Below are positions 2,340-18,676 of a stretch of 64,000 bases of DNA, piece after piece (the stretch's first letter is position 1; the number at the start of each line of letters is the position of its first letter). This DNA comes from an uncultured Planctomycetota bacterium. Its GTDB lineage: Bacteria > Planctomycetota > Planctomycetia > Pirellulales > PNKZ01. The DNA is taken from NCBI GenBank assembly GCA_963708675.1, contig CAVPTO010000003.1:327749-391748 (forward strand), written 5' to 3'. The translations under genes and the position numbers were made by a program. The notes below the pieces were generated by a model. The model made no database searches, was not told the DNA's origin, and was given only the letters and a program-made list of their open reading frames with translations.

Positions 2340-3134
2340 TCACTGAACCTGACCGGACGACGCGCCTTCGGGAATTGCAGTCACCTCTTCTGGCAGCGGA
2401 ACGAGGCGATACTCGAAGCCTTTCTCGACCATCAGCGTTCGCAACGCCGCAAAAGTGTCAAACGAGTCGTCCCAAAGGAAGACGGCGAGGTATTCCTTCG
2501 CGGGGTCGAAGCCTGCCAGCGCCGCCGCGATTTGATCCTTCGGCACGCTGTCCGCAGTCAACGCAATGCCCGCTCCTGGTCGCGGACCGACGCTGCGCTG
2601 CCCCGAGCTACTCCGCTGTTGAATGATATCGGCGTCGTTCACGCTCCGCGCTGCATCTGATTTGACGAGCACTGTCAGGCGGTGAGCTTTCAAAAAGATC
2701 GGCACCTCCGTTTTCGTCGTCGCATGGAGCATTGGCAATCGAGTCTCGCGAGTGCGGGCCGCAGCCTCGTTGCTTAGTCGCGTTTCGAGCGACGAAAGCT
2801 GTTCTCGCAATCGAAGCGGCTCCGTTGCTTCGGCGAGTTGCTTCTTAAGTTGCGCAATATCGCCGGCCGGCGCCGATGAAGTCGTACGGTCGAGCGAAGC
2901 AATGAGCTGATCCTGTCGAGCGATTGCACGTCGGGCCGCGGCGATCTCTTCGGCCAGAGCGTCGCTCGCAGAGGACGGAGTGGTCTTCGCGACACTCTGA
3001 TGCGCCGACCCGCTAAACTGAAGCAGCACCGCAACCAGAATCGCAAGAAAGATGATTCCACCAAACGTATTGCAGATGGTGTCGAGCAACAGGTCGAGGC
3101 TGCCGAGTTCGGTCGTTGCGCGACGTCGTCTCAT
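2340..3134 (-). CDS. ExbD/TolR-like single-pass protein (TM Asp, coiled coil, C-terminal alpha/beta domain)
   Basis: Basic N-terminus MRRRR, then TM 'SLDLLLDTICNTFGGIIFLAILV' with an Asp at the ExbD position; ATGA overlap with the upstream gene. Confidence 0.65.
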   Translation of the reverse strand: MRRRRATTELGSLDLLLDTICNTFGGIIFLAILVAVLLQFSGSAHQSVAKTTPSSASDALAEEIAAARRAIARQDQLIASLDRTTSSAPAGDIAQLKKQLAEATEPLRLREQLSSLETRLSNEAAARTRETRLPMLHATTKTEVPIFLKAHRLTVLVKSDAARSVNDADIIQQRSSSGQRSVGPRPGAGIALTADSVPKDQIAAALAGFDPAKEYLAVFLWDDSFDTFAALRTLMVEKGFEYRLVPLPEEVTAIPEGASSGQVQ

Positions 3135-3862
3135 GTTCCGGCTGCTCCCACGATCGGATCGATTGCCGTCTGCTCAGACATGAGCACGTCGAAGCCCAGG
3201 TCAAAACGATCGGTCTTCAATGCGTCGCGAACATTGCCGTACGATTTGATGCCCGACGGCTTGATGAGCAGCACGAAGTATTCGCTCGCGCGATCGCGAG
3301 TTCGCAACCATTTGCGAAACGTGTCGAGCCATTGTGGTCCATCGAAAGTTAGCGGAGCGGCTACTTCGCCGACTTTCGCGATGAGTAGACGGTGATCGCT
3401 GACTTCGGCGAGCCAAGCCTGCTTCGCGGCGCCAGCGGCCGGGTTATACACCACGCGGTTGATTTGCTTCATGCGCTCGAGCGATTCTGAAAGCTCGGTC
3501 ACGCGCTGACGCAACTGTTCAATCTGAGCCGCTGTCATGGCGGGTTCGCTGGTCGCTCGAGCGATGGCTCGGCGAAGATCACCGGCCTCGGTGTGGTCGA
3601 CGCTAGTCGTCGACGAAAGCTGCTGCAACCGCTTGGCGCCTTCTTGTTCGCGACGCCGCAACTCGTCGAGTTCCTGCTGCGATGCCGACGAGTCGTTGCG
3701 TGCCGGTTCCGGGACCGCGGCGCTCGCGGCTTGCTTCGGTCGACGTATCAGCTCTACCGCCATCAGCAACGTCACCAGAATCATGATTCCGGTAACCGAT
3801 GTGATGATGTCCTGAAACGAGAATAGCGAGATCGGTGGACCGCTCGCACGCCGACGTCCCAC
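3131..3862 (-). CDS. second ExbD/TolR-like single-pass protein
   Basis: MGRRR, then 'SLFSFQDIITSVTGIMILVTLLMAV' TM with Asp, coiled coil, and C-terminal 'YFVLLIKPSG' domain paralleling the neighbour's 'YLAVFLWDDS'. Confidence 0.65.
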   Translation of the reverse strand: MGRRRASGPPISLFSFQDIITSVTGIMILVTLLMAVELIRRPKQAASAAVPEPARNDSSASQQELDELRRREQEGAKRLQQLSSTTSVDHTEAGDLRRAIARATSEPAMTAAQIEQLRQRVTELSESLERMKQINRVVYNPAAGAAKQAWLAEVSDHRLLIAKVGEVAAPLTFDGPQWLDTFRKWLRTRDRASEYFVLLIKPSGIKSYGNVRDALKTDRFDLGFDVLMSEQTAIDPIVGAAGT

Positions 3863-3880
3863 GGCAAGGCCTCAAATCTT

Positions 3881-5137
3881 TTATTGCGATACGTACCGGT
3901 AGGTGCCGCCGCTTTGCTCGCTGATTTTCTTCAGCAGCGGTTCACCAACATTATTGAGAAACGCGATCGTATGAATGGGAATGCGCCAACTGTTTGCCGC
4001 GACGAGCATGTCGGTGACTGCGGGATTGAAATCGCCATCTGTGAGCAAATAGATGGCATCAGGACGTCGGGCCAACGCGAACTTGAGCGCGTCGGTCGGA
4101 TCGGTTTCACCTTCCGCGACGCTGCGACGTATCCAGCGCTCGATTCGTTTGCGGCTATCGTTGCTGACCGTGAGCATGCGCTGCTCGGCCGTGGGAAAGA
4201 ATTGCGGATACGCACGATCGTTAAAGAAGACGACGTAGAACTTCTGTCCTTGTTTCAATTCTCCAATCGAACGAATCAGCTCGTCGCGCGCCCGTGTAAA
4301 CGGCTCGCCCTGCATACTGCGCGAGCAATCGACGACGTAGGCGACATTCGTGGCCGGCGCTGTAATGCCGAAAAAATCGGAGCTTCCTTGAACGCCCTTG
4401 GCGCCGCCGGTCGCCGAGCCGCCGTCCGACTGGTCATCGGAAGCAGATGTCGTCGAGTCTGGCTTGTCGCTTGGAGGAGCCGGTGTCGCGGCTGCCGACA
4501 GATTGACCGTTTCTCCGTTGAACGTGACGTGCGTGCCCCCGGAAGAGTCGCCTGCTTTGGTGGATGGCGGCGGTGCACCGCCTGAAGGTGCGGCAGCGCT
4601 TGGAGCATCGGCAGATTTCTTCGCCCCTGTCTTTACGTCTGTCGGCGCGGCGCGATCGATTGGCGCGTCGTGCTTGCGAACATTCTCGAGAGGTTTCGAC
4701 ACACGCGGCGCGGCGATTGGATCGTTCGGCGTGGGTGCGGCGATTTCGCCGATGGATGCCGTCTCGCGAGCACCGGGCAACAAAACGAACAACATGACGA
4801 GCGTTATAACGCTCACGATTGCAGCGGCCACGATGGCAGGCCGCTTGTCGAACGCCGGCGGCGAAGCGGGGACAGGCTCGAGAAGTCCGGTGAGCAAATC
4901 AGTCGGAGGAGTATCGTCCGGCGTTTGAACCGGTGCCGGACGCTGAACACGCGGCGCCAACGTTGCCCGCGGCACGAGTCCCATCGCCACGTCCGCCCGT
5001 TGCCAGGCGTCCTGCGGCCCTCGACGCACCTGGCTGCCGCGATCGATGCGGCCGGCAGTCACCAGGTACTTCAGTTCGGCCGACGACATCGGTCCGATAA
5101 TGCCTAGGCTCGATTGGTAGAACCACTCGTCAGCCAT
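3881..5137 (-). CDS. GYF_2 (DUF4339) - TM - Pro/Ser/Ala linker - vWA domain protein
   Basis: N-terminal WFY..GP.S..EL..L...G.I...V.....W GYF_2 pattern; TM 'AIVAAAIVSVITLVMLFVLL'; vWA MIDAS DCSRS...T...LLTDG and IHTIAF. Confidence 0.85.
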   Translation of the reverse strand: MADEWFYQSSLGIIGPMSSAELKYLVTAGRIDRGSQVRRGPQDAWQRADVAMGLVPRATLAPRVQRPAPVQTPDDTPPTDLLTGLLEPVPASPPAFDKRPAIVAAAIVSVITLVMLFVLLPGARETASIGEIAAPTPNDPIAAPRVSKPLENVRKHDAPIDRAAPTDVKTGAKKSADAPSAAAPSGGAPPPSTKAGDSSGGTHVTFNGETVNLSAAATPAPPSDKPDSTTSASDDQSDGGSATGGAKGVQGSSDFFGITAPATNVAYVVDCSRSMQGEPFTRARDELIRSIGELKQGQKFYVVFFNDRAYPQFFPTAEQRMLTVSNDSRKRIERWIRRSVAEGETDPTDALKFALARRPDAIYLLTDGDFNPAVTDMLVAANSWRIPIHTIAFLNNVGEPLLKKISEQSGGTYRYVSQ

Positions 5138-6032
5138 CGGTCGACGCCTCGAACGGCATGATCCGCAGGCGGCTTACGACGTTGCGCAGACAGTAGTCTG
5201 AGCAGTCTTCGAGAAACTCTTGCTCGCGAGTCTTGATGTACGTCAGCCAAAGCTGGATGAACAGCGCCCCGACGAGAGCCGCCAGTGTCGTCTCGAACGC
5301 CGTGCTTAGCCCTCCTGTCACGCCACGCAACGCATCGGTGATCTGACTCAGATCTTCGAGGTTGCCAAGCACGCCGCTAAACGCAGCAATCGCCTCGGAA
5401 AGTCCGAGCACCGTTCCAATGAAGCCAAGGACGGGAATGCCCCAAATGAAGCCGCCAATGAGCGCGTAGCTCGTTTCGAGCGAATCTTCGTCCTGGTTCG
5501 CAAGCGACTGAAGGATTTCGTCCACGTCAGTCACACGCCCCAGATTGCGCAGGTTCGACAACGCGACGGCGATGCGATTGAAAAGCACGAACTGCTTCGG
5601 ATCGTCGACAATGGTGTAAATGCGCTGCATCACTTCGTCGACGGTCGCCGACGAGAGAACGAAGTCGGGTGATGATGGGACGACTTCGTACTTGAGGGCT
5701 TTGCGCTGCAGCGCGAGTTTCCGCCATTTAAACCACAGAATCGCGGCGGACCAGAACGTGAGAAAGACGGTCGGATATTGCGTGGGCCCGCGCTTGGTGA
5801 ACATGTCGCCAAAGTAGGTGCCTTGCAGCGGGATGATAGCGCAGTAAAAAGCGACGCTCAGTATCGTCGCGATCAGGAAGGTGAGCAGATTGCCAGGCCG
5901 CGTGAACCGGCCTCCGCTGAACCCGATACGCTGCTCGGGATCTTGTCGCGCCCAAGAAAGCGACGGCAACCCGTCGTGCTCAGTACCCAACGGAGCGTCC
6001 ATCACGGCGGCGGTCTTGTGCAAAGTGGCCAT
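5130..6032 (-). CDS. MotA/TolQ/ExbB proton channel family protein
   Basis: 'IPVLGFIGTVLGL' and 'GLSTAFETTL.AL' conserved channel helices; two N-terminal TMs. Confidence 0.9.
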   Translation of the reverse strand: MATLHKTAAVMDAPLGTEHDGLPSLSWARQDPEQRIGFSGGRFTRPGNLLTFLIATILSVAFYCAIIPLQGTYFGDMFTKRGPTQYPTVFLTFWSAAILWFKWRKLALQRKALKYEVVPSSPDFVLSSATVDEVMQRIYTIVDDPKQFVLFNRIAVALSNLRNLGRVTDVDEILQSLANQDEDSLETSYALIGGFIWGIPVLGFIGTVLGLSEAIAAFSGVLGNLEDLSQITDALRGVTGGLSTAFETTLAALVGALFIQLWLTYIKTREQEFLEDCSDYCLRNVVSRLRIMPFEASTDG

Positions 6033-6104
6033 GATTCGATTCTAGACGCGGGTCAAGTTTCGCCGCTACTGCCATTGCACGTCGGAAACCGGTTCAATGA
6101 TGCG

Positions 6105-6773
6105 TTAGGACACCAGATCGGGACGAAGCCATACGATCAGCGCCGCTGCGGCAGCTGCGACGGATATCGCGATGAGCACCGCCAGGATGATCCAACTCCA
6201 AGGTATCGACGATTCCCGGGGGGCGTGGGGCACTCCCGCTAAAGGCTCGGAGACGCTTAACAGCGCGTTCTCCGTGGGGTCGCCGTCGTCGGAAAGCGTT
6301 ATTGTCGGTTGAAGCGGCGCCGATTTCGGCGCAGCCTGCACGGCCAATGTCGGGTCAGCATTCGAGCGATCGCCGGGCTCGGGGAACAGACTCGGAACCG
6401 TCGAGGCGCGGACCCACGAGATGCCGTCGATCGAGATCTCGTGCAAGCGGCTGAACTGTCCTTTGCGTGCCAGTGACCGCAAGTATTCCTCCGTGTAGGG
6501 GCCGACGGTGTGGCCACGAACTCGAAGAAAGTATTCGCCGCCCGTCGCCGATGGCGGAGCAGGTTCGTCGAAGAAGTCTCGGCTCTCGTCCCTTCGCGGC
6601 CCTTCGCTGGCGAAGAGTTCACGAACCGTCCCGGCTCGCTTCCACTCGACGCCGTCGAGCGAGACTTCGTGCAATCGGCTGAGCTGCCCGCGGCTGGCGA
6701 GCTGTTGCAACTGCTCAGTCGTATAAGGGCCTTGCGTTTTGCCGCGCACCCGCACGTACATGCGTTGATCCAA
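6105..6773 (-). CDS. tandem GYF_2 (DUF4339) domain protein with C-terminal membrane anchor
   Basis: Two near-identical repeats 'Y.RVRG.T.GPYT.E.L..LA..GQ.SRLHE.S.DG..W.RA..V..LF'; C-terminal TM; TTG start at 6773 with GGAG upstream. Confidence 0.8.
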   Translation of the reverse strand: MDQRMYVRVRGKTQGPYTTEQLQQLASRGQLSRLHEVSLDGVEWKRAGTVRELFASEGPRRDESRDFFDEPAPPSATGGEYFLRVRGHTVGPYTEEYLRSLARKGQFSRLHEISIDGISWVRASTVPSLFPEPGDRSNADPTLAVQAAPKSAPLQPTITLSDDGDPTENALLSVSEPLAGVPHAPRESSIPWSWIILAVLIAISVAAAAAALIVWLRPDLVS

Positions 6774-6813
6774 CGGTCGTTTACTCCAAGACGTCCGACA
6801 GTCGGTAAAGTTG

Positions 6814-9784
6814 CTATTGTCTGTTCGCAGCGACGCTGACAAACACGGGGCGTCCCTCGACCAGCGCCTCACCATCGTCTGATGAAACTGTCGCGACACC
6901 GTCCTGAAGTTTGCCGATCGTTTTGAGTTGGGCAGTACCGGCGCCATCCGCACGCACGACCACTAACGGCCCAGCACTCGACGAAAGATTTCCCATGAGG
7001 ACGCACGTCCAACGCTCGTCACCTTGCACGGAGTCGTCGTGCTTCAGCCAGCCGATCCGTTCGTACAAAGGACCGATCGGCTCGTTCAATTCCGTCCACT
7101 GTGAACGAACGTCATTGTGAATCTCTTTTCCAGTCGGAAGGCGCTTCAGTAGATCTCTGGCTTTCGAACGCTCGGACCGCGCTTCGGCGTCTTCGGGATT
7201 AAGCCAATTCACGGTCAGCGTTAGATGCGCACGCATCATCAATTCTCGCGTTCGCGCAAACGCTTTCTGAAGCACCACGCTCGTCGCACTGCCAACATCG
7301 GTAAACCGGTCGAGCAGCGCTAGCCTCAGAATAGGGTCGAGCGAAGCGTCGTCTCGTACGCGCTCGGTCATCGTGCTCAAAGTTTCGTCCCAGCCCAGCG
7401 ACTTGAGCTTCGTATCAAGAACGTCGAGCAACTGTTTCGCAAGCTCCGACTGCGGTGCAGGCTCGTCGTAGGGGGATGTCGAATGAGACAACTCCTCAGG
7501 GCGCACGGACCTGGTCTTGAGCTTCATGTCGAAATCGCTGACATACTTGATGACGATTTTGCCTGTCGCCTGATCCAGCTTCGGATTCTCGCGCACAAAA
7601 TATTGTTTCGTCGCTTCCGGGTCGCGCACATCGACAACGCGCAGATCGGCGATGGTCGGCTCACGGAGCAAATCGAACAGCTGTTTAACGATCTGCGATT
7701 GCTTCGCTCCGCGCGCGGCAACCGACTCTAAGACCGGCATCTTCTCGCGAATCTTTGCGACTGCGGGGAGCGTGGTTGACGCAGGATCCTTGGCCACCTG
7801 TTGCGAATCATTCAACAACGTCTTCGCCTCGTCCGCGCTGAGAGCGTCGATCTTCGTTGCATTCCAGCGACGCACGAGAGCGTTTACCCGTTCGAGTTGC
7901 TTCCACAGCGGCGCCTCTTGCGATACGCGTTTGAAGTCAACGGCGCGGGCTGTCTGGCCAAAGCGGTCGGCGTAGGCGGCAAGTGCCGTCGTGAAGGAGT
8001 CCGGATTGCCGACGGCGGCCGTTACTTGACGCAGCATCCGATCTTGTTCGTGGCGCTGGGTGACGTTACGTGAGAGTGCCTCGGCTCGCGCCTTGAGCGG
8101 CGCGAGCGCGGCCGAGGAATGCGCACTCACAAGCCCCGATTGTGCCGACAAGTCGACGACGTCGCGCGTCAGCGCGAGCACCTGATCGTTGCTAGCCGTC
8201 GCATGCCTGGCGGCTTCTTCCAACTTTACGAGACGATCGGTGAGCGCTTGCACGCGCTCGTCGAATTGCTCATCAACGCGTCCCTGTTCCCTACGTTGTG
8301 CGGCGGCGATTCGGTTGTGCAGGTCGGAAACGCGTTCCTTTTCGTCAGCCGTTTTCGCCAGGCGTGTCGTTTCATCGCGTAGGTGACGATCCGCCTGGCT
8401 CAATCCGCTTAGTTGTGGCTTGTCAAAACGTGCGAGCTTCTCGGCGACATCGAGCGAAGCTTCGAACGACCGATGGCGTTTCGTCTCCTCATCGATCATC
8501 AACGCAAGTCGCGCGGCAACGGTCTCGACCGATGCACTGGCTGCGATCTCAGGTTCGGTGGCGCGAAGCTTGTCGAGAAAGTCGGAGGCCCCTGCCGTAT
8601 TGTCATCGTGCATCAGTCGCTCGATTGCCGCCACCTGACGCGCGACCTCGTTTCGCCACATGACTTCGCGGACGCCGATCGCCGTCAGCGCCTCCAGCCA
8701 CGAGGACGCCGACGGCGATGCCCACTACCATCAATCGTCGACGGCGCATGGCAGATAACGTCAGCGACGACATGCGATCGCGAACGCGCCGTTCGAGCAC
8801 CGGCGACAGCGGCATGTCGTAACGCAGACAGTCATGCACCAGACGTTCGAGAGCCAGCAGCGAGACGTCCGAATCGAGTGATTGCTCCAGTTTCGCCACG
8901 GCTGCCGAGAAAGCGACCTGCCGTTGTTCGCTGGCATCTTGCGAGTCGAGCCATGCAATCGTCGGCGAGACGGCCTCGACTAAGGGATCGTGATCGTCCA
9001 CGCCGGCGATCATCACGCACGCCTGCCATCGCCCCCGCAAGCTCCGTCCACGCTCGACGTCGAACTCCGAGTGCGCAGCGGTCAACTCGACCTCGAGACG
9101 CTTCAGCTCGGTGCGTGCGGCGTCTTGTCGTAGCCGTCCATGCGATTGACGTATCCGTTCGACGACCGACAGGACGGGCGGCTCAAGCCATCCCGGCGCG
9201 GTCACTTCGTCTTCGAGCGCTTCGACGGTCGTCACGTCCGAGTCGCGCACGGCGACCGCAAGCTCCTGTCCAATCGCCTGGACTCGGGTGCGTTCGTAAA
9301 TCCTCAGGTCTTCGGGCCATACCGGATTCGCCGGGTCGGCCTTGGCAATGCGTCGCAACGTGGCGATACGCTCCGACAGCGGCGCCCGAGCGAGCGCCAA
9401 TCGGCGATGCTGCTTCAGGAGGCTGTCGAGCGACAGGTTGGCGGCATATGCCTCGTTCAACTCGCTGGCGATGTCGATCAACAACTCCGGTGGTGGAAGC
9501 TCGCTATTCTCCTTGAGCAACGTCGCCCACTCGCGACGTTCGGGAAAGTCGAGCGTCGTGACGAGATCGAGCAGGTTGGGCTCGGTGTCGCAAAGCTGGA
9601 TCGCCTCGCTGCGTAGTCCTTGTCGCAACAACTTGGCGCATTGCCGCAACCGTGCATTGGCGTCGTTGCACAGTTGCATATAGTCGCCCGCCAGCGACGC
9701 CAACTCGTCCGGCATCGGTATGTGCTGCGAATGCAGCAGCGTCTTGATTTCGTCGATCAGCGCGTGTTCGTCGATTGCGGGCAT
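6814..9784 (-). CDS. large (~990 aa) helical/coiled-coil single-pass membrane protein; split by one frameshift near 8690
   Basis: ORFs 8603..9853 and 6814..8661 join in the middle of a TM helix (RRRRLMVVGIAVGVLVAGG/ALTAIGVREVMWRNE); ATG 9784 lies 7 bp after the upstream stop. Confidence 0.75.
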
Positions 9785-9791
9785 GACAATG

Positions 9792-12059
9792 CTACGGCCG
9801 GTCTTTTTGGATGTGACCAACCAGCCGGATGATTGGCTGCTGATCCTGTTCATCCAGCCATCGGTTCAATTCGGTAAGCTGGGCCTGCAACTTGGTTTCC
9901 TCAGCAATCCGCGACTGGACATTCGCTTCGGCGGAGCTCAGCGAATCCTTCTTGAGCTGACTCAAGGAGCTTTTCGATTGGTTGAGGGCACTCGTCACCG
10001 AAGCCTTCGTGAGCGGCTGGAATGCGCTGTTCGTTTTGTGCGGAAACAACAGGATTTTGACGTCGGGCTTGATCGTGAGTGCGGCAACTTTCGCCCCATC
10101 AGATTTCTCGGCAGCAGCGAAGACCAGCTCGATTTGAAATCCCTTTACCCAACCGCTGTGCGTTGTCCCGCGGGAGGCATCCAAAGCAAGGTCGTTGGAC
10201 GCCGATTCGACCGTCTGCACAACATGGTAGCCGAGCGGAAGATAACGCCAGCCCGGCTCAAACGCCTTGGAGCGTCGCTTCTGACAATCTTCGACACTGA
10301 ACGCGATGACCGATTCGTGGCGAGGAAAATCGAACGTCACCAGACAATCCTCTTCGCCCACGAAGACGCGCAGTACATGACCCAACAGACGAGCTTGATC
10401 CTCGGGCCTCTTAGCATCGAAGTTCAGCACCAGTGTATTGTCATTTTGCTGAAGGTGAGCGATCGTCAGCGGCGTGATGCCCATATTGGTTTTGATCACC
10501 CAGTCGCGGGCAACGTTCTCAAGGGTCAAAGAGCCGTGCGCAGACTCGGTATCTTCGATCTCGATTCGAACAGCGTCGCCACGGTTGTTCTTCCAACGCA
10601 CGAGCTCCATCGACTCCGACGTTCCGTCGAAACGCAACATGGCCTTGGCTGTGCGACCTTCGTGTAAGCCGACGAACGCGAACTGCTGGTAGGCGGGGTT
10701 CACATCGGCAGAGACTACCGGAGACGCTTGTGACATGTTCGGCGCACCGCCAATGGCAATCTGCGGCGAAGGTTCTTCGTTTGGCTTGAGCGGCGATTCA
10801 CTGACGTTGGACGCTGAAGCGACCTGTGAAGTTTCACGCGTTGGCGCTTCTTGAGTCGCTTGGGCGGGCTCAACTTCGGAGACTTCAGTCTTGCGTGTCG
10901 AGGTCGACGATTTGCCGTCGTGAACCGGAGCGGCCGAAATTTCACGATGCGACCGCGAACCGAGGACATAGGCGACAAACGCCAACGACGCCATCACCAG
11001 CACCACACACGCGATGGCGGAAGCATACAGAACGGCTTTGGGAACTCCTCGTCGTTCCCGATGCGGAACGAGTGGGGTGCGGGTCGAGGGATTCTCCGAG
11101 TTGCGATCGTCGTTGGCCGAGTCGCGAATCGTTGGCTGCAGCGCCGATACGCGGATGTCACCGGCACTTTCAACAGCCTCGGATGGTGGAGCATCTGCTG
11201 CGTCCTTCAGATCAGCAATCACCATCGTCGCCCGTGGGTGTCGAACGGGTTCCACCTGCGGCAGCTTCCCGGTCAGCGCTGCGGTCACCAGCGGTCTGTC
11301 GGGCGCTGGAGGCATTTGCTTACAAAGATCGAACACCAGCCAATGCGGCGAACGCCGCGCGGTCTCCGCCTCGGGCTGTCCGTCGACGACGAATCGCCAT
11401 TGACAATCGACACCCGGCGGAAGGCGCGTGAAGAATGTGCTGAACGTCACGTCCCAACGATGCTCCGGCGCGACCAATGCCAGCGCCTCGGCTACCAACG
11501 GCAACGCATTGAGGCCGAGTGGAATAATGACGTGTGTGGGTTTGGCATCGCGATCGCCGGCTGTCGCTGCAAGAACGCCTGCCCAGCCTGCGTCGCCCGT
11601 GGCTCGCTGCCATGCCGTGCAAATGCGTGGCGATTCGGTCAACGCAGGCGGCTTGCGACCAGACGGCAGAATGCGCGGCTCGCCCTGCCACGACGTCTCC
11701 ATGAAGTTCGGCTCGGCCAAGAGACGCGCCGGCCCGCAGGCGGAGCGTTCGGCCGCGGTCAACGCCACGTGGTGCGCGAGTTTGTTAGACCGCTGCGAGT
11801 AATCGATGCCGGCATCGCAAACCCGCGAGAGGACATCGAACGACTGCCCGCCGACGACGATCTTCAGGTGTGAGTAGTTGACCGGGTTTTGCGACGCGCG
11901 CTCGTCATGGGGCGGAAACAGATGGCGATAGCCGCTCAGCGATTCGAGGCGATCGGCGAGCGTGACGGCCATTCCCGCCGTGCTGGCGACCGTGCAGAAC
12001 CCCTTCACGCCGCTGCGGAGTCCGCGCGGAGCGGAAGTGTAAATCAGCTCCTGCGTCAC
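9792..12059 (-). CDS. GTPase-associated protein 1-like (GAP1-N2/GAP1-M) with TM and extracytoplasmic domain
   Basis: N-terminus 'QELIYTSAPRGL...GFCTVA...LESLSGY...GIDYSQRSNKLAHH' and 'RWDVTFSTF' match GAP1-N2/M as recalled; GTG start overlaps the GTPase stop; TM 'AVLYASAIACVVLVMASLAFVAYVLG'. Confidence 0.75.
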   Translation of the reverse strand: MTQELIYTSAPRGLRSGVKGFCTVASTAGMAVTLADRLESLSGYRHLFPPHDERASQNPVNYSHLKIVVGGQSFDVLSRVCDAGIDYSQRSNKLAHHVALTAAERSACGPARLLAEPNFMETSWQGEPRILPSGRKPPALTESPRICTAWQRATGDAGWAGVLAATAGDRDAKPTHVIIPLGLNALPLVAEALALVAPEHRWDVTFSTFFTRLPPGVDCQWRFVVDGQPEAETARRSPHWLVFDLCKQMPPAPDRPLVTAALTGKLPQVEPVRHPRATMVIADLKDAADAPPSEAVESAGDIRVSALQPTIRDSANDDRNSENPSTRTPLVPHRERRGVPKAVLYASAIACVVLVMASLAFVAYVLGSRSHREISAAPVHDGKSSTSTRKTEVSEVEPAQATQEAPTRETSQVASASNVSESPLKPNEEPSPQIAIGGAPNMSQASPVVSADVNPAYQQFAFVGLHEGRTAKAMLRFDGTSESMELVRWKNNRGDAVRIEIEDTESAHGSLTLENVARDWVIKTNMGITPLTIAHLQQNDNTLVLNFDAKRPEDQARLLGHVLRVFVGEEDCLVTFDFPRHESVIAFSVEDCQKRRSKAFEPGWRYLPLGYHVVQTVESASNDLALDASRGTTHSGWVKGFQIELVFAAAEKSDGAKVAALTIKPDVKILLFPHKTNSAFQPLTKASVTSALNQSKSSLSQLKKDSLSSAEANVQSRIAEETKLQAQLTELNRWLDEQDQQPIIRLVGHIQKDRP

Positions 12060-13486
12060 GGCGTCGCCTCCTTGCGAGACGTGTTGCTCGTATCCTCGTG
12101 AAGTCGAGTGACGGGCAGCGTTTGGCCGTCGGATGGCGTGCTGCGCGTGTACGGGATGAGTCCTTCGACCCATCGAGCCAGCGCATAGAGCATCGGAACT
12201 TCCGTCCACATGGGCTGAATGTCTTGCGGACGGACCAACAACGCGCCGGTGCCGGCCTGCGATTCGGGCGGACGCCCCAAGGCGCTGGCGGGCACGTAGA
12301 GAACTTCTTTGCAGAACCCCTCAGCCGCGGCGACGAATTCACCGCGATGCTCGAGCATCACCTTGCGAACGCGGCGCGACATTTCTTCGACCACTGAAAG
12401 ATCAACGGCTGACAAATCACCTTTGCCCGCGCGGACCACTTGCGACAACTCGAGCCGTTGGGGCAGATCGCCGAGCAGCGATCGCCACGCGTCGAATTTC
12501 GTGACGACGACAACGAGGGGCGCCGTGTGCTGGCTGGTCTGCCCGATTCCCGCATGGCGCCGCACGCGTGCCGCGGCTTCGAGCAACACGAGCTCTTGCC
12601 GGTACGTGCGGACTCGATCACGCATCTGCGGGTCGGTCGTGTGCTCGGCACATGCCCGACGAAAGTCGGGGTCTTGCGAGGGATCGAAAAGGAAGAACAG
12701 CACCCGTGACAGCGCAAGGTGCCGTGTGACCGGCGTGCCGAGCTTGTCCGAGCCGGGGATGAAATGCTCACCCGCGTTGTCGTACAGACACAAGGCCCGC
12801 GACAGTCGTTCGCGCTGCTCGAAGTATGGATGCCCTTCGAGCGGACGCAGGCCAAACACATACGGCTGCGGAAACATGACTGCCTGATCGCCGAACAGGA
12901 CGGAGTCGTACAGGTGCGCGCCCTCGGTATCGGTTTTGGGCAGCGTGGTCGGCGTCTCGGGATCGGCGTTGAGAAACAGCAACTCCTCATAGCCGTTGAG
13001 CGTCTCGTTGAAGGATGGATCGGCATCGCCGAGTGACAAGTTGAAATACTTCGGCAACACTTTGCGGAGCTGCCAGGTCATGCTCGCCAGGAAGTACGAC
13101 TTGCCCGAGGCCGGTGCCCCGAGGATCGAAAAGAACAGCGGGTCCATTTCGAACAACGCGCGCGGCACCGCGAGATGACAGTTCGGGCAAGCGAGCGTGT
13201 GACACGCGAAGCCGCGGGCGTCGATGGCGTCGCCCTCGGGCGTGAACCGTGAAGGGAGGAACCGAAGCTGCTGTTCCTTGCCGAGTCGCGGATCGCCTTG
13301 CAGCTCTGGGTCTTGCGACACCCAAAGAGTATCGTGTGGCGCAAAGTGATGCCAACAATGGGGGCAGGTCACGCGAGACTGCAAGCGCAGCGATGACCGT
13401 GAAAATCGCTTGGAACTCAAGCGACAGCCTCCAGGATGACACCCTAGACAGGACGCGGGCATCGAACGACAGCCCGACCACTTCAT
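12056..13486 (-). CDS. TRAFAC-class P-loop GTPase with N-terminal Zn finger (double-GTPase/DO-GTPase2-like)
   Basis: CPHC and CPNC; G1 GAPASGKS, G3 DNAG, G4 TKFD, G5 SAL; real start probably ~13385-13400. Confidence 0.85.
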   Translation of the reverse strand: MKWSGCRSMPASCLGCHPGGCRLSSKRFSRSSLRLQSRVTCPHCWHHFAPHDTLWVSQDPELQGDPRLGKEQQLRFLPSRFTPEGDAIDARGFACHTLACPNCHLAVPRALFEMDPLFFSILGAPASGKSYFLASMTWQLRKVLPKYFNLSLGDADPSFNETLNGYEELLFLNADPETPTTLPKTDTEGAHLYDSVLFGDQAVMFPQPYVFGLRPLEGHPYFEQRERLSRALCLYDNAGEHFIPGSDKLGTPVTRHLALSRVLFFLFDPSQDPDFRRACAEHTTDPQMRDRVRTYRQELVLLEAAARVRRHAGIGQTSQHTAPLVVVVTKFDAWRSLLGDLPQRLELSQVVRAGKGDLSAVDLSVVEEMSRRVRKVMLEHRGEFVAAAEGFCKEVLYVPASALGRPPESQAGTGALLVRPQDIQPMWTEVPMLYALARWVEGLIPYTRSTPSDGQTLPVTRLHEDTSNTSRKEATP

Positions 13487-14921: not shown

Positions 14922-16271
14922 CTACGTCAAATCCGGCAGCGGCCCAGCACCGCAGTAGTCGGGATTGCCGAAGCGGTCGATGCGATGCCCCATGCCGTGC
15001 GCGAGCGATATTAGCAGACGATTGTGCGGGAGTTTCGGGAATTTCAACGAGCGTCCCATGCGGTAGTCCAATCCTCCGCCGACGAGGACGAAGGGAATAT
15101 CGTCCAAGGTGTGCGTGTTTCCTTTACCCAATTCGTTGGTCCAAACGATCAGTGTGTTGTCGAGCAAACTGCCAGGTCCGCCGGGCTCGGGCGTCTCGGC
15201 CAACCGCTTCGCCAGATAGGCCAACTGCTCGCAGTACCACTTGTTGATGCGCGTCAGCTTGTCCTGCGCGTCGGCGTCCTTATCTTCTTTGTGCGAAAGC
15301 TCGTGATGTCCTTCGTCAATGCCGATCCATCGCATCCGTTCGCTGCCAACCGAGTTCGTGAACTGCAAGGTGGTAACGCGTGCGAAGTCGCCGAGCAGAC
15401 TGCTCACCATCAGGTCGATTTGCATCTTCGTGAGGCGAGGCATGTTGTCGTTTTGTTCGTCGATGCCGGGCTCGAGCTCGGGGACCGCGTGACCAACTTG
15501 CTGCGAATCATTCGATCGCAGCTCCTGCTCCATTTCGCGCACGAAGGTCGCATGCTGGTCGAGTAGACGGCGGTCTTCGGCACTCACCATGCCTTGAATC
15601 TTACGCAGATCGCTTTGTACGCCGTCGAGCACGCTGCGCAGCGTCGCTTGATCCTTGGTGCGCCCGTACAGTCGGGCAAACATCTGGTATGGGTCGTCGA
15701 TCGGCGCAATCGGTTGATTGGGGCCCGCGTAAACCATGCGCGTCCAGGTGTCGGCACGGTCGGGCACCATGACGCCGAATTCGAGCGAGCCGTAGCGCGT
15801 GCGTGTCGCGTCGTCGGCTTGCAAAAATCGCTTGATTTCCTGATCGATCGAGATGCCGCTCGCCCAGCCGGCAGGCGTGTCGCTGCCCCCCTGCACATTG
15901 CCGGGAAACAGTTCACTGCCAGTGAGCAAGCAGCCCATGCCGCGCATGTGATTGTCGCCGTCGCCGCGCACCTTATCGCACACGCCATGCAGCGTGAGCA
16001 TGCGATCGCGGAAAGGTTCGAGCGGTTTCAGGCTTTCAGGCAGCGTGAAGTTCTCGCCCTCCTCCGACGGCCAAAAGTTATTAGGAACGACGCCGTTGGG
16101 GCTGAAGACGATGATGAGACGCTGCTTGCGTCGCGATTGGTTCGCGAAGCCGAGACTCGGCAAATTGAGCACCAGCGGCACCGTAGCAGCGCCGAGCCCG
16201 AGCTTGCGGATAAACGCGCGTCGACTGGTCGTGGTCATCGGAATCTCCAATTCAGCGCTCTCTCGGTTCAC
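14922..16271 (-). CDS. DUF1552 family Tat-exported protein
   Basis: SRRAFI Tat motif, 'PNG', 'SIDQ', 'HHELSH', 'GSLLDNT' motifs; paired with the DUF1592 gene. Confidence 0.85.
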
Positions 16272-18676
16272 CGCTTCGCGTCGAACGACAGTTGTCCTTC
16301 GGTTTTGCCACTTTTGGCGCTCGTCGGCTGCGATGCCGAGGCGACCATGATTTCGATCATCAGCTGACGGAAGTTGAATCCGCTCATCTCGAACGATTTC
16401 GTCAACGTGTCGAGCGTGCCGGGAGCATAAGCCCTGACCGGTTGCTTGACCAGATGATGGAACAACTGCTCGACGAGCGCCGCATGGGCCTCGGGACTAT
16501 CGGACAAAAAGGTCGCCAACTCGCGGACGTTGGCAAAGGTGACGGAGGTGCCGTCTCGCGTCTGGTACAGGCCGGTCGCATCGATCGGTTTGCCTTGTTC
16601 CTTCTTGCGAAACCGGCCGACAGCGTCGAAGTTTTCGAACGCGAAGCCCAGCGGGTTGATCATGCGATGACACGACTGACAGGCGGTCGCCTCGGTCTGC
16701 AGCGACACGCGCTCGCGGGTCGAAAGGTTCGCGTGCAAGTTGGCAGGCAGCGGCGCCACGGCCTCGGGGGGCGGACGCAGCGCACGGCCCAGCACGTTGC
16801 GGGCGACGAACACTCCGCGATGGATCGGCGAGCTCGCACTCGTGTAGGCCAGCCCCGCCATGAGATACGGATGCGTCAACACGCCGGCGCGTTTGCCGTC
16901 GTCGAGCTTAACCTTCTGAAACGGTGCGTCCGCTGGAAGTTTGACGCCATAGAACTTCGCGAGACGTCCGTTCATATACAGCGAATCGGCGAGCAACAAC
17001 TGCCGCAGGTCGCCGCCTTGAGTGAAGATGGCGTCGTCGATCGACATGTCGAGCGCGGCTCGCAAGTCGGAAACGAACTCCTCGTCGAACTCGGGAAATC
17101 GTTTAGCGTCTTTGGCGAGATCGACGAATTGATCGGCCTTGAGCCAGCGCAGGAAGAAAGCCCGCAGCTTCGCACGGCAGCGCTGGTCGTCGGCCATCCG
17201 TTCCGCCTGATGTCGAACACCTCCGGCACTCTTCAAGTGTCCCGAGGCGGCGGCCTTGGTGAGTTGGTCGTCGGGGAGCGAATCCCACAAACCCATCGAT
17301 AGCCGCGACGCGATGTCGTAAGCGTCGAGTTCCTTGTCGACATCTTGATACAGGAAGCGGGGCGAGATGAGCGTCATCAGCACCATGCGCTGAATTGCAA
17401 CATTCTGCGCGGCGGCATCGTCCGTTCCTAAACATTCAAACTGCGCGTCGACATAGGCTCGCTTTTCCTCCGACGTGAGCGGACGACGGAAGGCGCGGCT
17501 GGTCCATCGATAGCCGAACTCGAGGGCTTTGGCCCGCGGAACGGGCTGCTTCTTGGAAACGCCGATGAGTTGATGCAGGTTCTCGGTCACGTAGGCCGCG
17601 GTCTCGAGCGCTGCTTCGGTCGCGGCCTCTTCCCAGGCTTTCGAGACCGAATTGCCGCGCTCGTAACCGATGCTGCGATCGTCGGGCGGAAACGCAGCGC
17701 CGCTCACGTAGACGGTCGGGTACGGCTTCGGCGATAAGTACCGGGCCGGAATGACTTCAATGGCGCGGTGAGGCATCCGCCACTTAAGAGCGACGGCCGC
17801 CGACTTCTCTTTGGCCTTGCGCGATTTGAAGTATTGCAGTCGCAACGGCATCGGACGGCCGTCGAGCATTCGCACGGTCGCGCGATGTTGAATGTCGTCA
17901 CCGGATCGCACCGTCGCGTCGATCAACGGGCGATCCAAGTCGTTCAGCCACAGCAGAGCGCCGTTGGCGGATTCGAGAATGATCTCGTACTGACCAGGCT
18001 CGGGCGCGAGCAACCCGCCGGTCCATTGAATCGCGAACTCGTCGTCGGCCATGGACTCGGCGTCGGGGCTACCGGTTCCGAAGTCGAACGCGACTTCGCC
18101 GTCGAGACGATCGAAAACGAAATCCTTCTTGTTGAATCGGCGGCTGTGGTGGTATTCGCCCTTCAAGCCTCCGCCGCCATCCCATGCCTGCCACCAGCGA
18201 AAACTTCCGACGAGGTCGGCCAGCGATTGACGATGCTGCCGGACGGTCAACCGCGAAAGCTCGATCCGCGCGGGCCGCAGACGTTCTTGGGCGAGCGGCG
18301 AATAAAAGGCGTCGTGGATGAACTCGGCCACGCTTTGCGCGTCGGGGCCGACGCAACTACCCGGGTCGTCCTCGGGCATCGTCTTGGCAATGAGCGTGGT
18401 GAGTTCCGCAACCGACTTGTCGCCAACGAGCGGCTTGTCGTACTCGTCCTTCACCCCCTGCCCCACGTCGCCATGACATCGCGCACACTGCTCGACGTAG
18501 ATCGCCTTGCCACGCGCAGGCTCGTTGGCAAGCAAACAATCGCCAGCGGTGGCGATCGCAAGTAGCGCGGTGACGACGATCGTGGCAGTTCGAAGCACGA
18601 CGGTCTCGAAAAAGGGGCGGGCCACCGCGGGCGTCGGAGGACGCAAACGGTAAGTGCTCAGCAGGCCTCTAAGCAT
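16268..18676 (-). CDS. planctomycete cytochrome c / PA14 / DUF1592-DUF1588-DUF1585 protein
   Basis: CARCH and CQSCH haem motifs, PA14-like segment, 'RLTVRQ', 'LISPRFLY', 'ASRLS..LW.S.PD', 'SSPIHRG', '[14 protein letters not shown]'; start uncertain. Confidence 0.85.

Follow-up and report, generated by a model that had tools for sequence, protein, structure and literature searches.

How does a GTPase-centred membrane system act on its cell when no enzymatic effector is in sight? The question is raised by a cluster of eight genes, G1–G8, on the minus strand (positions 2340–13486) of a 64,000-nucleotide stretch of DNA from an uncultured Planctomycetota bacterium (contig CAVPTO010000003.1), referred to here at its full length as the window. 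Read in the direction of transcription, G1 and G2 encode a zinc-ribbon GTPase and a GAP1 protein, G3 a large helical protein, G4 a protein with paired GYF domains, G5 an ExbB-like stator subunit, G6 a GYF protein with a von Willebrand A (vWA) domain, and G7 and G8 two paralogs with an aspartate in an N-terminal transmembrane (TM) helix. DO-GTPase/GAP1 systems are known from computational prediction only, our literature searches having found no experimental study of them, and their output is obscure where an enzyme effector is lacking. The planctomycete sub-lineage in which a motor is attached points to a concrete and testable form of that output, a stator-like proton motor. Judging by its genes, the cluster probably encodes a GTPase-gated envelope device driven by the proton-motive force (PMF), with GYF-docked periplasmic payloads. 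What appears to be new is the junction of the core (G1–G4) with the motor (G5, G7 and G8); the core and clusters of vWA and tolQR genes were already known, and this is not a wholly new system.

Synteny of the GTPase core and the motor genes

An alignment of the ExbB subfamily represented by G5 was scanned over one genome per species (185,579 species) and returned 116 relatives, of which the best 80 were kept. Every title among these 80 that names a taxon names a planctomycete group, and several orders and families are represented. Gene neighbourhoods were counted by tblastn with the window's proteins, the count for GAP1 and the GTPase being made on the 34 loci among L025–L104 with at least 9 kb of sequence upstream of ExbB. 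GAP1 lay upstream of ExbB in 32 of these 34 loci, so that the synteny in other genomes on which the preliminary description had staked its case was found, and the GTPase and GAP1 were both upstream in 31 of 34. In the neighbourhood of ExbB, 41 of 44 loci had G3, 56 of 61 had a GYF protein and 46 of 49 had both G7 and G8; a vWA protein of the G6 type was matched in 18 of 49, which makes the vWA gene optional. The four exception loci examined (L081, L087, L100 and L102) come from genomes that all encode GAP1 elsewhere (E-values 3e-62 to 1.5e-77). Since the arrangement is conserved across species, it is not a product of chance.

The same genes were then counted from the side of GAP1. Among 41 genomes (the window's own and 40 relatives), GAP1 was present in 12 and in neither of the two genomes of the same genus. 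In each of the 12 GAP1 loci the GTPase accompanied GAP1, and where the contig was long enough, G3 and then a GYF protein came after them. ExbB, G7 and G8 came next in four of the 12, were absent in five with at least 8 kb downstream, and three loci stopped at contig ends. ExbB proteins with at least 58% identity to G5 were confined to five of the 41 genomes, where they adjoined GAP1; the G5 relatives adjoining GAP1 loci are 58–71% identical. Across 401 genomes sampled evenly from the phylum, GAP1 occurred in 24 and the ExbB subfamily in 14 (at least 40% identity, E ≤ 3e-59); both were found in 11 genomes, ExbB only in three (one genus), GAP1 only in 13 and neither in 374, and any statistic based on these numbers is inflated by the relatedness of the genomes.

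The genes flanking the cluster are ordinary planctomycete genes. They were found in none of 92 related loci, and the same-genus genomes contain them, on different contigs, and lack the cluster. Because the flanks differ in this way and the closest genomes are without the cluster, it is, as far as sequence comparison can tell, a unit that moves as a whole. In a tree of 53 GTPases, which includes two identical pairs that are the same records twice (L015/L048 and L016/L044), motor-linked and motor-less members are interspersed, with 7–8 gains or losses of the motor, at least three of them forced by well-supported branches. Hence, of the proposal that the GTPase core is coupled to the motor, the conserved junction stands, and the motor has to be regarded as an optional module.

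The GTPase and its GAP1 partner

G1 (12056–13486, minus strand, as for all genes of the cluster) is a 476-aa open reading frame (ORF) whose predicted product, by Pfam, alignment and hydropathy, is a soluble cytoplasmic zinc-ribbon DO-GTPase of the TRAFAC class. The window's protein scored 19 bits against the Pfam DO-GTPase2 model, below the cut-off of 27; within its family, 34 of 39 members match the model at E ≤ 0.01, the best at 1e-7. Residues C41, C44, C100, C103, G123, G128-K129-S130 and T185 are invariant in 39 G1 sequences, as are D236, G239-E240, K330 and D332, which form the DxxGE and KxD motifs. The earlier identification of a TRAFAC GTPase with its G motifs and two CxxC pairs is thereby borne out: GxxxxGKS, T185, DxxGE, KxD and both CxxC are invariant across the 39 sequences. 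The zinc ribbons and the Walker-B glutamate match the definition of DO-GTPases given in PMC7159879, and on motif and profile evidence G1 is a divergent DO-GTPase2.

G2 (9792–12059) lies directly downstream, its GTG start overlapping the G1 stop by 4 nt. Pfam and a TM scan give it GAP1-N2 (6e-28) and GAP1-M (1e-13) domains, a proline-containing linker, one TM helix (about residues 338–370) and a periplasmic region of about 385 aa, in agreement with its earlier description as a GAP1-N2/M-like TM protein. GAP1-N2 and GAP1-M are both present in 35 of 35 G2 homologs. GAP1-C was found in none of the 35 by Pfam at E ≤ 1e-3, in a copy of Pfam not checked for a GAP1-C model, and the sole further Pfam match among these sequences consists of Ig-like domains in one of them. 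Residues 250–337 or thereabouts, the cytoplasmic linker before the TM helix, contain prolines, of which Pro309 and Pro324 are nearly invariant; from its sequence, this linker is a candidate ligand of the GYF domains.

A variant arrangement was seen in a complete genome (L137, 3207–17798), in which two GAP1 genes flank the GTPase, in the order GAP1, GTPase, GAP1, G3, GYF, ExbB, GYF protein, G7 and G8.

The ExbB-like subunit and the G7/G8 pair

G5 (5130–6032) encodes an ExbB/TolQ/MotA-like stator subunit with three TM helices, assigned by Pfam and alignment to a distinct subfamily. Its match to Pfam MotA_ExbB (PF01618) reached 39.9 bits over a cut-off of 22.9 (E = 4e-10), upholding the earlier call of a MotA/TolQ/ExbB gene. 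The protein has 300 aa, with TM segments at 46–72, 188–222 and 245–266, and members of its subfamily are about 280–300 aa long and have no tail. In 79 sequences, P200, G203, G206-T207-V208, G210, T239, G241, T248 and T249 are 100% conserved; the conserved threonines of TM2 and TM3 presumably line the channel. In a metagenome collection clustered at 90% identity, 2,678 clusters matched G5 at E ≤ 1e-20, and the 120 listed carried generic names only.

G7 (3131–3862) has an N-terminal TM helix with Asp18, a coiled coil of about 80 residues and a C-terminal alpha/beta domain, as predicted from alignment and an AlphaFold2 (AF2) model with a mean predicted local distance difference test score (pLDDT) of 82. 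The C-terminal domain (residues 148–226, pLDDT above 94) has the order beta-beta-beta-alpha-beta-alpha-beta. G8 (2340–3134) shares this architecture, and comparison of the two families by hhalign (probability 98.9%, E = 4e-17) identifies them as paralogs. Asp18 in the TM helix is invariant in 66 G7-like and 59 G8-like sequences. Modelled together, G7 and G8 formed a parallel heterodimer with a score of 0.81, against 0.00 for the best control; at least 94% of contacts were common to the runs, with a partner pLDDT of at least 83. The score mark applied is reached by 58 of 80 solved complexes and by 2 of 110 mismatched pairs, counts that are rough for the alignments used here. The modelled interface extends from the TM helices over the coiled coil to the C-terminal domains, and the model supports, without showing it, that G7 and G8 bind each other.

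In the preliminary description, both were named ExbD-like. This name had to be given up in its literal sense, as neither protein is detectably ExbD by Pfam, by profile-profile comparison or by fold search; the analogy remains. Because of the invariant TM aspartate, the place beside an ExbB-like gene and the modelled heterodimer, G7 and G8 seem by analogy to take the place of ExbD/TolR, though they cannot be recognised as ExbD. Searches of PDB profiles with the two families returned coiled-coil proteins only. A match of G7 to Rv2743c/PspM (25.2 bits, Pfam/NCBIfam) fell below the cut-off and was put down to TM and coiled-coil composition. In a library of 1.84 billion representatives at 50% identity, G7 had 916 matches at E ≤ 1e-30, and its nearest atlas clusters are labelled 'hypothetical protein' and come from Planctomycetota and Verrucomicrobiota. 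G7 and G8 thus belong to a sizeable unannotated protein family.

Related motor genes were also observed on their own. Stand-alone trios of ExbB-like, G7-like and G8-like genes occur at L119 (6709–10542), L120 (7380–11031), L121 (6440–11085) and L122 (8918–12403), in genomes without GAP1; their ExbB-like proteins have a long C-terminal extension, at 517–1088 aa, and their neighbours are of a housekeeping type, such as glucose-6-phosphate dehydrogenase and an ammonium transporter-histidine kinase fusion. In a single genus, three genomes without GAP1 carry another form (L124, 8903–17280, and L125), in which a reduced G3-like protein (568–693 aa) accompanies ExbB, G7 and G8, and GTPase, GAP1 and GYF are missing from the module. 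The similarity of this shortened protein to G3 is confined to two regions, one juxtamembrane/TM and the other periplasmic and C-terminal. The neighbours of this module at L124 are a TonB-dependent receptor gene, a gene for a YfiR-like protein and one for a CHASE8 histidine kinase.

GYF proteins and a variable slot

G4 (6105–6761) encodes two cytoplasmic GYF_2 domains and a C-terminal TM anchor. Its ORF is open to 6953, and the conserved start at 6761 was placed by alignment of homologs; over the ORF 6105–6953, Pfam GYF_2 matched at 1.6e-16 in two stretches, followed by the TM segment, as expected of the 2xGYF_2-TM protein described before. G6 (3881–5137) combines a cytoplasmic GYF_2 domain (2.7e-6), a TM helix, a proline-rich linker and a periplasmic vWA domain (9e-11), and the earlier GYF_2-TM-linker-vWA assignment was likewise recovered by Pfam and hydropathy. 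The residues of the metal-ion-dependent adhesion site (MIDAS) are largely kept in an alignment of 19 sequences, D270 and T345 at 100% and S272, S274 and D367 at 89%. A motor-binding SHLS/His motif was absent from the TM helices of all 26 G6-type proteins inspected.

The position of G6 between ExbB and G7 proved to be variable. This slot is empty in 37 loci, a count that includes one duplicate record, and holds one or two genes in 27. Of ten slot proteins scanned, seven have an N-terminal GYF_2 domain, and those inspected have a TM helix. The periplasmic part is a vWA domain, a squalene-cyclase-like alpha/alpha toroid or a sequence of no known family. The position of G4 varies too: in the window, the two GYF domains are joined to one TM helix, and in relatives to multi-TM, PrsW or trypsin-like modules. 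The PrsW intramembrane protease was found at L018, and a trypsin-like peptidase at three motor-less loci (L128, L130 and L021) and one motor-linked locus (L139). The statement that no nuclease, peptidase or TIR effector is present therefore needs to be divided. In the window, no enzymatic effector is visible; because relatives carry trypsin-like and PrsW modules at the GYF-protein position, the absence of a peptidase effector holds for the window only and not for the family.

The alpha/alpha toroid proteins, which resemble squalene-hopene cyclases and prenyltransferases in their predicted periplasmic part, were seen at L038 (1246–3072), L034 (12094–14073) and L050 (10901–12742); an N-terminal GYF_2 domain was detected in two of them as well, an unusual domain pairing.

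G3, its frameshift and the organization of the locus

G3 (6814–9853) is predicted from ORFs and homologs to be a large helical protein with a single TM pass, and it has no significant Pfam match. The AF2 model of a homolog (L013; pLDDT 84) consists largely of alpha-helices and includes two small beta domains, and Foldseek found no PDB match to it at E ≤ 1e-3. The 43 homologs are single ORFs of 940–1035 aa, so the earlier report of a helical TM protein of about 990 aa is right for the relatives. It is not right for the window, in which G3 is split by a one-base frameshift near 8691 into two overlapping ORFs (8603–9853, 416 aa, and 6814–8661, 615 aa), and the frame switches within the hydrophobic TM helix.

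One metagenome contig lacks a single base at 8691, and this deletion restores the G3 frame. Across the metagenome contigs, the deletion form accounts for 2.9 of a depth of 13.6 at this position, and the form that keeps the window's base for 10.7 of 13.6. The two runs used hold about 30% of the cluster's words and gave identical tables, so they are probably one data set filed twice. Because most of the depth keeps the window's base, the frameshift is probably real in the main population, though this falls short of proof. It adds a rider to any reading of the cluster, namely that the system is decaying or inactive in this genome, with G3 broken by a real frameshift. The two overlapping ORFs and the predominance of the extra base among the contigs point that way; on the other side, the metagenome runs possibly stem from the same sample as the window assembly, depths are low, an intact form of G3 exists on one contig, and all the other genes of the cluster are intact in the window. 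We put the chance of such decay at slightly below even.

As for the locus as a whole, ORF calling returned nine minus-strand ORFs, corresponding to eight genes. The eight co-oriented, closely packed genes that had been proposed were thereby recovered, together with their overlaps at 12056–12059, 5130–5137 and 3131–3134; the intergenic gaps of 7–72 nt also hold, provided that the starts of G3 and G4 are placed at 9784 and 6761. Pfam searches of each ORF, which had been suggested as a check, recovered GAP1-N2/GAP1-M, GYF_2, MotA_ExbB and VWA, and did not recover ExbD. An NCBIfam scan of all nine ORFs gave no useful match. In a hydropathy scan, G1 appeared soluble, G2 and G3 single-pass and sizeable on either side of the membrane, G4 tail-anchored, G5 with three TM helices, G6 single-pass with GYF inside and vWA outside, and G7 and G8 with an N-terminal TM helix. 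Elsewhere in the window (14922–18676) and unrelated to the cluster, a PSCyt/PSD-domain gene with additional cytochrome c and PA14 domains is followed downstream by a DUF1552 gene; DUF1552 and PSCyt/PSD-domain genes are a pair typical of planctomycetes.

A proposed mechanism and its alternatives

On balance, and with somewhat better than even confidence, we regard the system as an accessory, horizontally shuffled member of the GAP1-N2-type DO-GTPase membrane systems, in which a motor is licensed by the GTPase and payloads are docked through GYF domains. The conserved core consists of the cytoplasmic zinc-ribbon GTPase, the TM-anchored GAP1 protein, the single-pass helical G3 of about 990 aa and the paired-GYF membrane protein. 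Within one large sub-lineage of planctomycetes, it shares an apparent single operon with the ExbB-like stator and G7 and G8. A G7/G8 heterodimer would be enclosed by the ExbB-like subunits, in the manner of 5:2 proton motors, and proton flow via the aspartate pair would set the periplasmic coiled-coil stalks and C-terminal domains in motion. GAP1 and G3 would set the nucleotide state of the GTPase, and the large periplasmic parts of both could sense the envelope. The state of the GTPase would in turn gate the assembly or activity of the motor, by licensing or localising it. The cytoplasmic GYF domains may then dock exchangeable payloads, a vWA domain in the window and the alpha/alpha toroid, trypsin-like or PrsW modules in relatives. 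Because of the patchy, shuffled distribution and the protease variants, we lean towards a device for envelope conflict or surface interaction over a housekeeping machine; module swapping fits this as well.

A stronger form of the proposal is that the switch formed by the DO-GTPase, GAP1 and the 990-aa protein acts as the direct gate of a 5:2 motor of a type not annotated before, with an ExbB-like ring around the heterodimer of two non-ExbD proteins, and with GYF domains as a general plug-in socket through which one engine could drive exchangeable periplasmic payloads (vWA, alpha/alpha toroid or proteases). This we offer as a tentative idea and would sooner doubt than accept. If true, it would describe a modular, GTP-licensed and PMF-powered platform for envelope effectors that bridges conflict systems and stator-type motors.

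Several results weigh against the reading we favour. A scan of the cluster for promoters and terminators gave chance-level signals only, and the window's own copy of the system may be inactive or disabled by the G3 frameshift. Among the 401 sampled genomes, 13 of the 24 with GAP1 have a core without a motor, the sister of the window's GTPase in the tree (L014) is motor-less, with a Shimodaira–Hasegawa-like approximate likelihood ratio test (SH-aLRT) value of 96, and motor trios without a GTPase or GAP1 occur; since the modules are separable, the coupling may be loose or regulatory only. The assignment of G7 and G8 to the motor is subject to similar doubt. Neither has a Pfam ExbD match, a PF02472 search of the source genome found six other ExbD genes and not G7 or G8, and hhalign against these six canonical ExbD proteins gave probabilities of 0.1–0.2%. 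Foldseek with the G7 model returned weak S11-like or RNase-H-like matches, with no ExbD or TolR among the 50 PDB matches listed. Moreover, PADLOC reported only weak ZorA matches, which leaves a role in defence without direct support.

The direction of signalling could also be the reverse of that proposed. In a Zorya-like arrangement, the ExbB-like/G7/G8 motor would be a sensor of the envelope, responding for example to phage entry or wall damage, and would signal inward to the GTPase, GAP1 and G3 and to GYF-linked proteases or other effectors. The weak PADLOC matches of G5 to ZorA (5e-5, the rest being coiled-coil noise) hint at this, and the C-terminal extensions of the ExbB-like proteins in the related trios (517–1088 aa) resemble ZorA tails; the trypsin-like and PrsW modules on the GYF proteins of relatives and the patchy distribution would fit too. 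The G5 subfamily, at about 280–300 aa, is nevertheless without a tail, Pfam and PADLOC revealed neither a peptidoglycan-binding domain nor a ZorC/D/E-like gene, the core occurs in many genomes without a motor, and the window has no enzymatic effector. We consider inward signalling of this kind unlikely. About equally unlikely, in our estimate, is a niche-specific envelope machine that takes no part in conflict, that is, a TonB/TolA-like or Agl-Glt-like PMF device for uptake, adhesion or surface movement, with the TM-tethered vWA as a force transducer or adhesin and the GTPase as a spatial regulator. Such a role is at odds with the distribution, as just 24 of 401 genomes have GAP1 and just 14 of 401 have the ExbB subfamily, and both same-genus genomes lack the system. 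It also sits poorly with a vWA gene present in 18 of 49 loci, with G6-type TM helices that have no SHLS/His motif and with the protease-bearing variants, which fit effector logic better. What speaks for the niche machine is that the architecture of G6 matches the topology of the 'vWA force transducers' in the main text of PMC12204202, that the reduced G3-like, ExbB, G7 and G8 module adjoins a TonB-dependent receptor gene in one genus, and that GltJ, MglA and AglRQS provide a precedent, as described in parts of PMC11135422.

The cluster might, finally, be two independent systems that lie side by side with no functional coupling. Each module is also found without the other, as this would require. 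GAP1 is, on the other hand, adjacent in 32 of 34 loci, in the same order and on the same strand in several orders and families; the four split cases examined keep both modules in the genome, and GYF proteins are common to both. We therefore hold independence to be very improbable, and return to the GTPase-licensed motor as the preferred reading. Cultured carriers exist, Planctomicrobium sp. SH527 with the fused operon and Neorhodopirellula pilleata Pla100 with the modules split, and genetics is therefore possible. The sub-lineage is not small, comprising 116 species-level ExbB relatives and about 2,700 metagenome ExbB clusters at 90% identity, and should be of interest for research on both stator-type motors and prokaryotic conflict systems.

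Comparison with known systems

The core corresponds closely to systems predicted by Kaur, Burroughs, Iyer and Aravind (eLife 2020; PMC7159879), the comparison here being with the main text of that paper. They described GAP1-N2-type GTPase-centric (DO-GTPase) conflict systems with a patchy, mobile distribution, and in planctomycetes a core made of a GTPase with zinc ribbons, a TM-anchored GAP1-N2 protein and a paired-GYF protein. The cluster resembles these systems in the N-terminal zinc ribbons and Walker-B glutamate of G1, in the GAP1 protein (N2 and M) with a C-terminal TM helix that follows it, in the paired-GYF TM protein G4, and in the trypsin-like, PrsW and multi-TM modules of its relatives (PMC7159879). 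It differs in the third component, which has fibronectin type III (FNIII) repeats in the published systems and is here the alpha-helical TM protein G3 of about 990 aa, and in the attachment of an ExbB-like gene, two TM-Asp genes and a GYF-TM-vWA gene to the core. The main text of PMC7159879 has no mention of MotA, ExbB, ExbD, TolQ, TolR, proton or stator, although its Figure 6B and source data may differ.

The other half of the cluster has its own precedent in a 2025 study in Molecular Biology and Evolution (PMC12204202), the main text of which describes inner-membrane-tethered vWA 'force transducers' adjoining tolQ-like and paired tolR-like genes in the Planctomycetes-Verrucomicrobia-Chlamydiae (PVC) group. 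In common with those clusters, ours has a TolQ/ExbB-like gene with a pair of heterologous single-pass partner genes, a TM-tethered vWA protein with a disordered proline-rich linker, and a helical-repeat gene nearby ('TPR', tetratricopeptide repeat, in that study). Unlike the vWA proteins described there, G6 lacks the SHLS/His motif, has an N-terminal GYF domain and is optional; the gene families were compared by description only. The main text of PMC12204202 does not mention a GTPase (0 occurrences). The label 'candidate new system' in the preliminary description was accordingly too strong, given that both the planctomycete GTPase-GAP1-GYF core (PMC7159879) and the PVC clusters of vWA, tolQ-like and paired tolR-like genes (PMC12204202) had been described in the main texts of these papers. 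For the junction of the GTPase/GAP1 core with a motor, our literature searches found no description, and figures or supplements may show it.

Among PMF-driven machines, the cluster shares with ExbB-ExbD-TonB and TolQ-TolR-TolA a MotA_ExbB family member, G5, and partners that have an N-terminal TM helix with an aspartate of the essential type. In contrast to ExbD and TolR, G7 and G8 fall outside PF02472, have a coiled coil of about 80 residues and end in a different C-terminal fold, and no TonB or TolA is present. Zorya is built on a ZorA/ZorB 5:2 motor, in which ZorA has a long C-terminal tail and ZorB a peptidoglycan-binding domain, together with ZorC/D or ZorE. The likeness to Zorya lies in a MotA/ExbB-family subunit outside flagella and the Ton and Tol systems, in the patchy accessory distribution and in the weak ZorA matches; by Pfam and PADLOC, the cluster lacks the tail of ZorA, a ZorB-like domain for peptidoglycan binding and the ZorC/D/E genes.

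A further parallel is the Agl-Glt apparatus of Myxococcus, which the preliminary description had called an analogy rather than an orthology. We keep it as an analogy only, G1 being a DO-GTPase and not Ras-like. In both, a motor of the TolQR type has a pair of unlike small subunits (in Myxococcus, AglQ and AglS alongside AglR), and both have a vWA protein, an adhesin in Myxococcus, and a GYF-bearing membrane protein, which in the case of GltJ reads the state of a GTPase through cytoplasmic ZnR and GYF regions, as described in parts of PMC11135422. The two differ in that MglA is a small Ras-like GTPase and G1 a 476-aa DO-GTPase paired with GAP1, and in that the present cluster is an accessory operon, in which no Glt homologs were seen, although no Myxococcus sequences were compared. 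In the same source, GltJ is described as binding AglZ and MglA-GTP through its GYF and linker regions, beside the AglRQS motor (PMC11135422). By analogy with GltJ, the cluster suggests that bacterial GYF domains may serve as docking modules for motor-associated membrane proteins.

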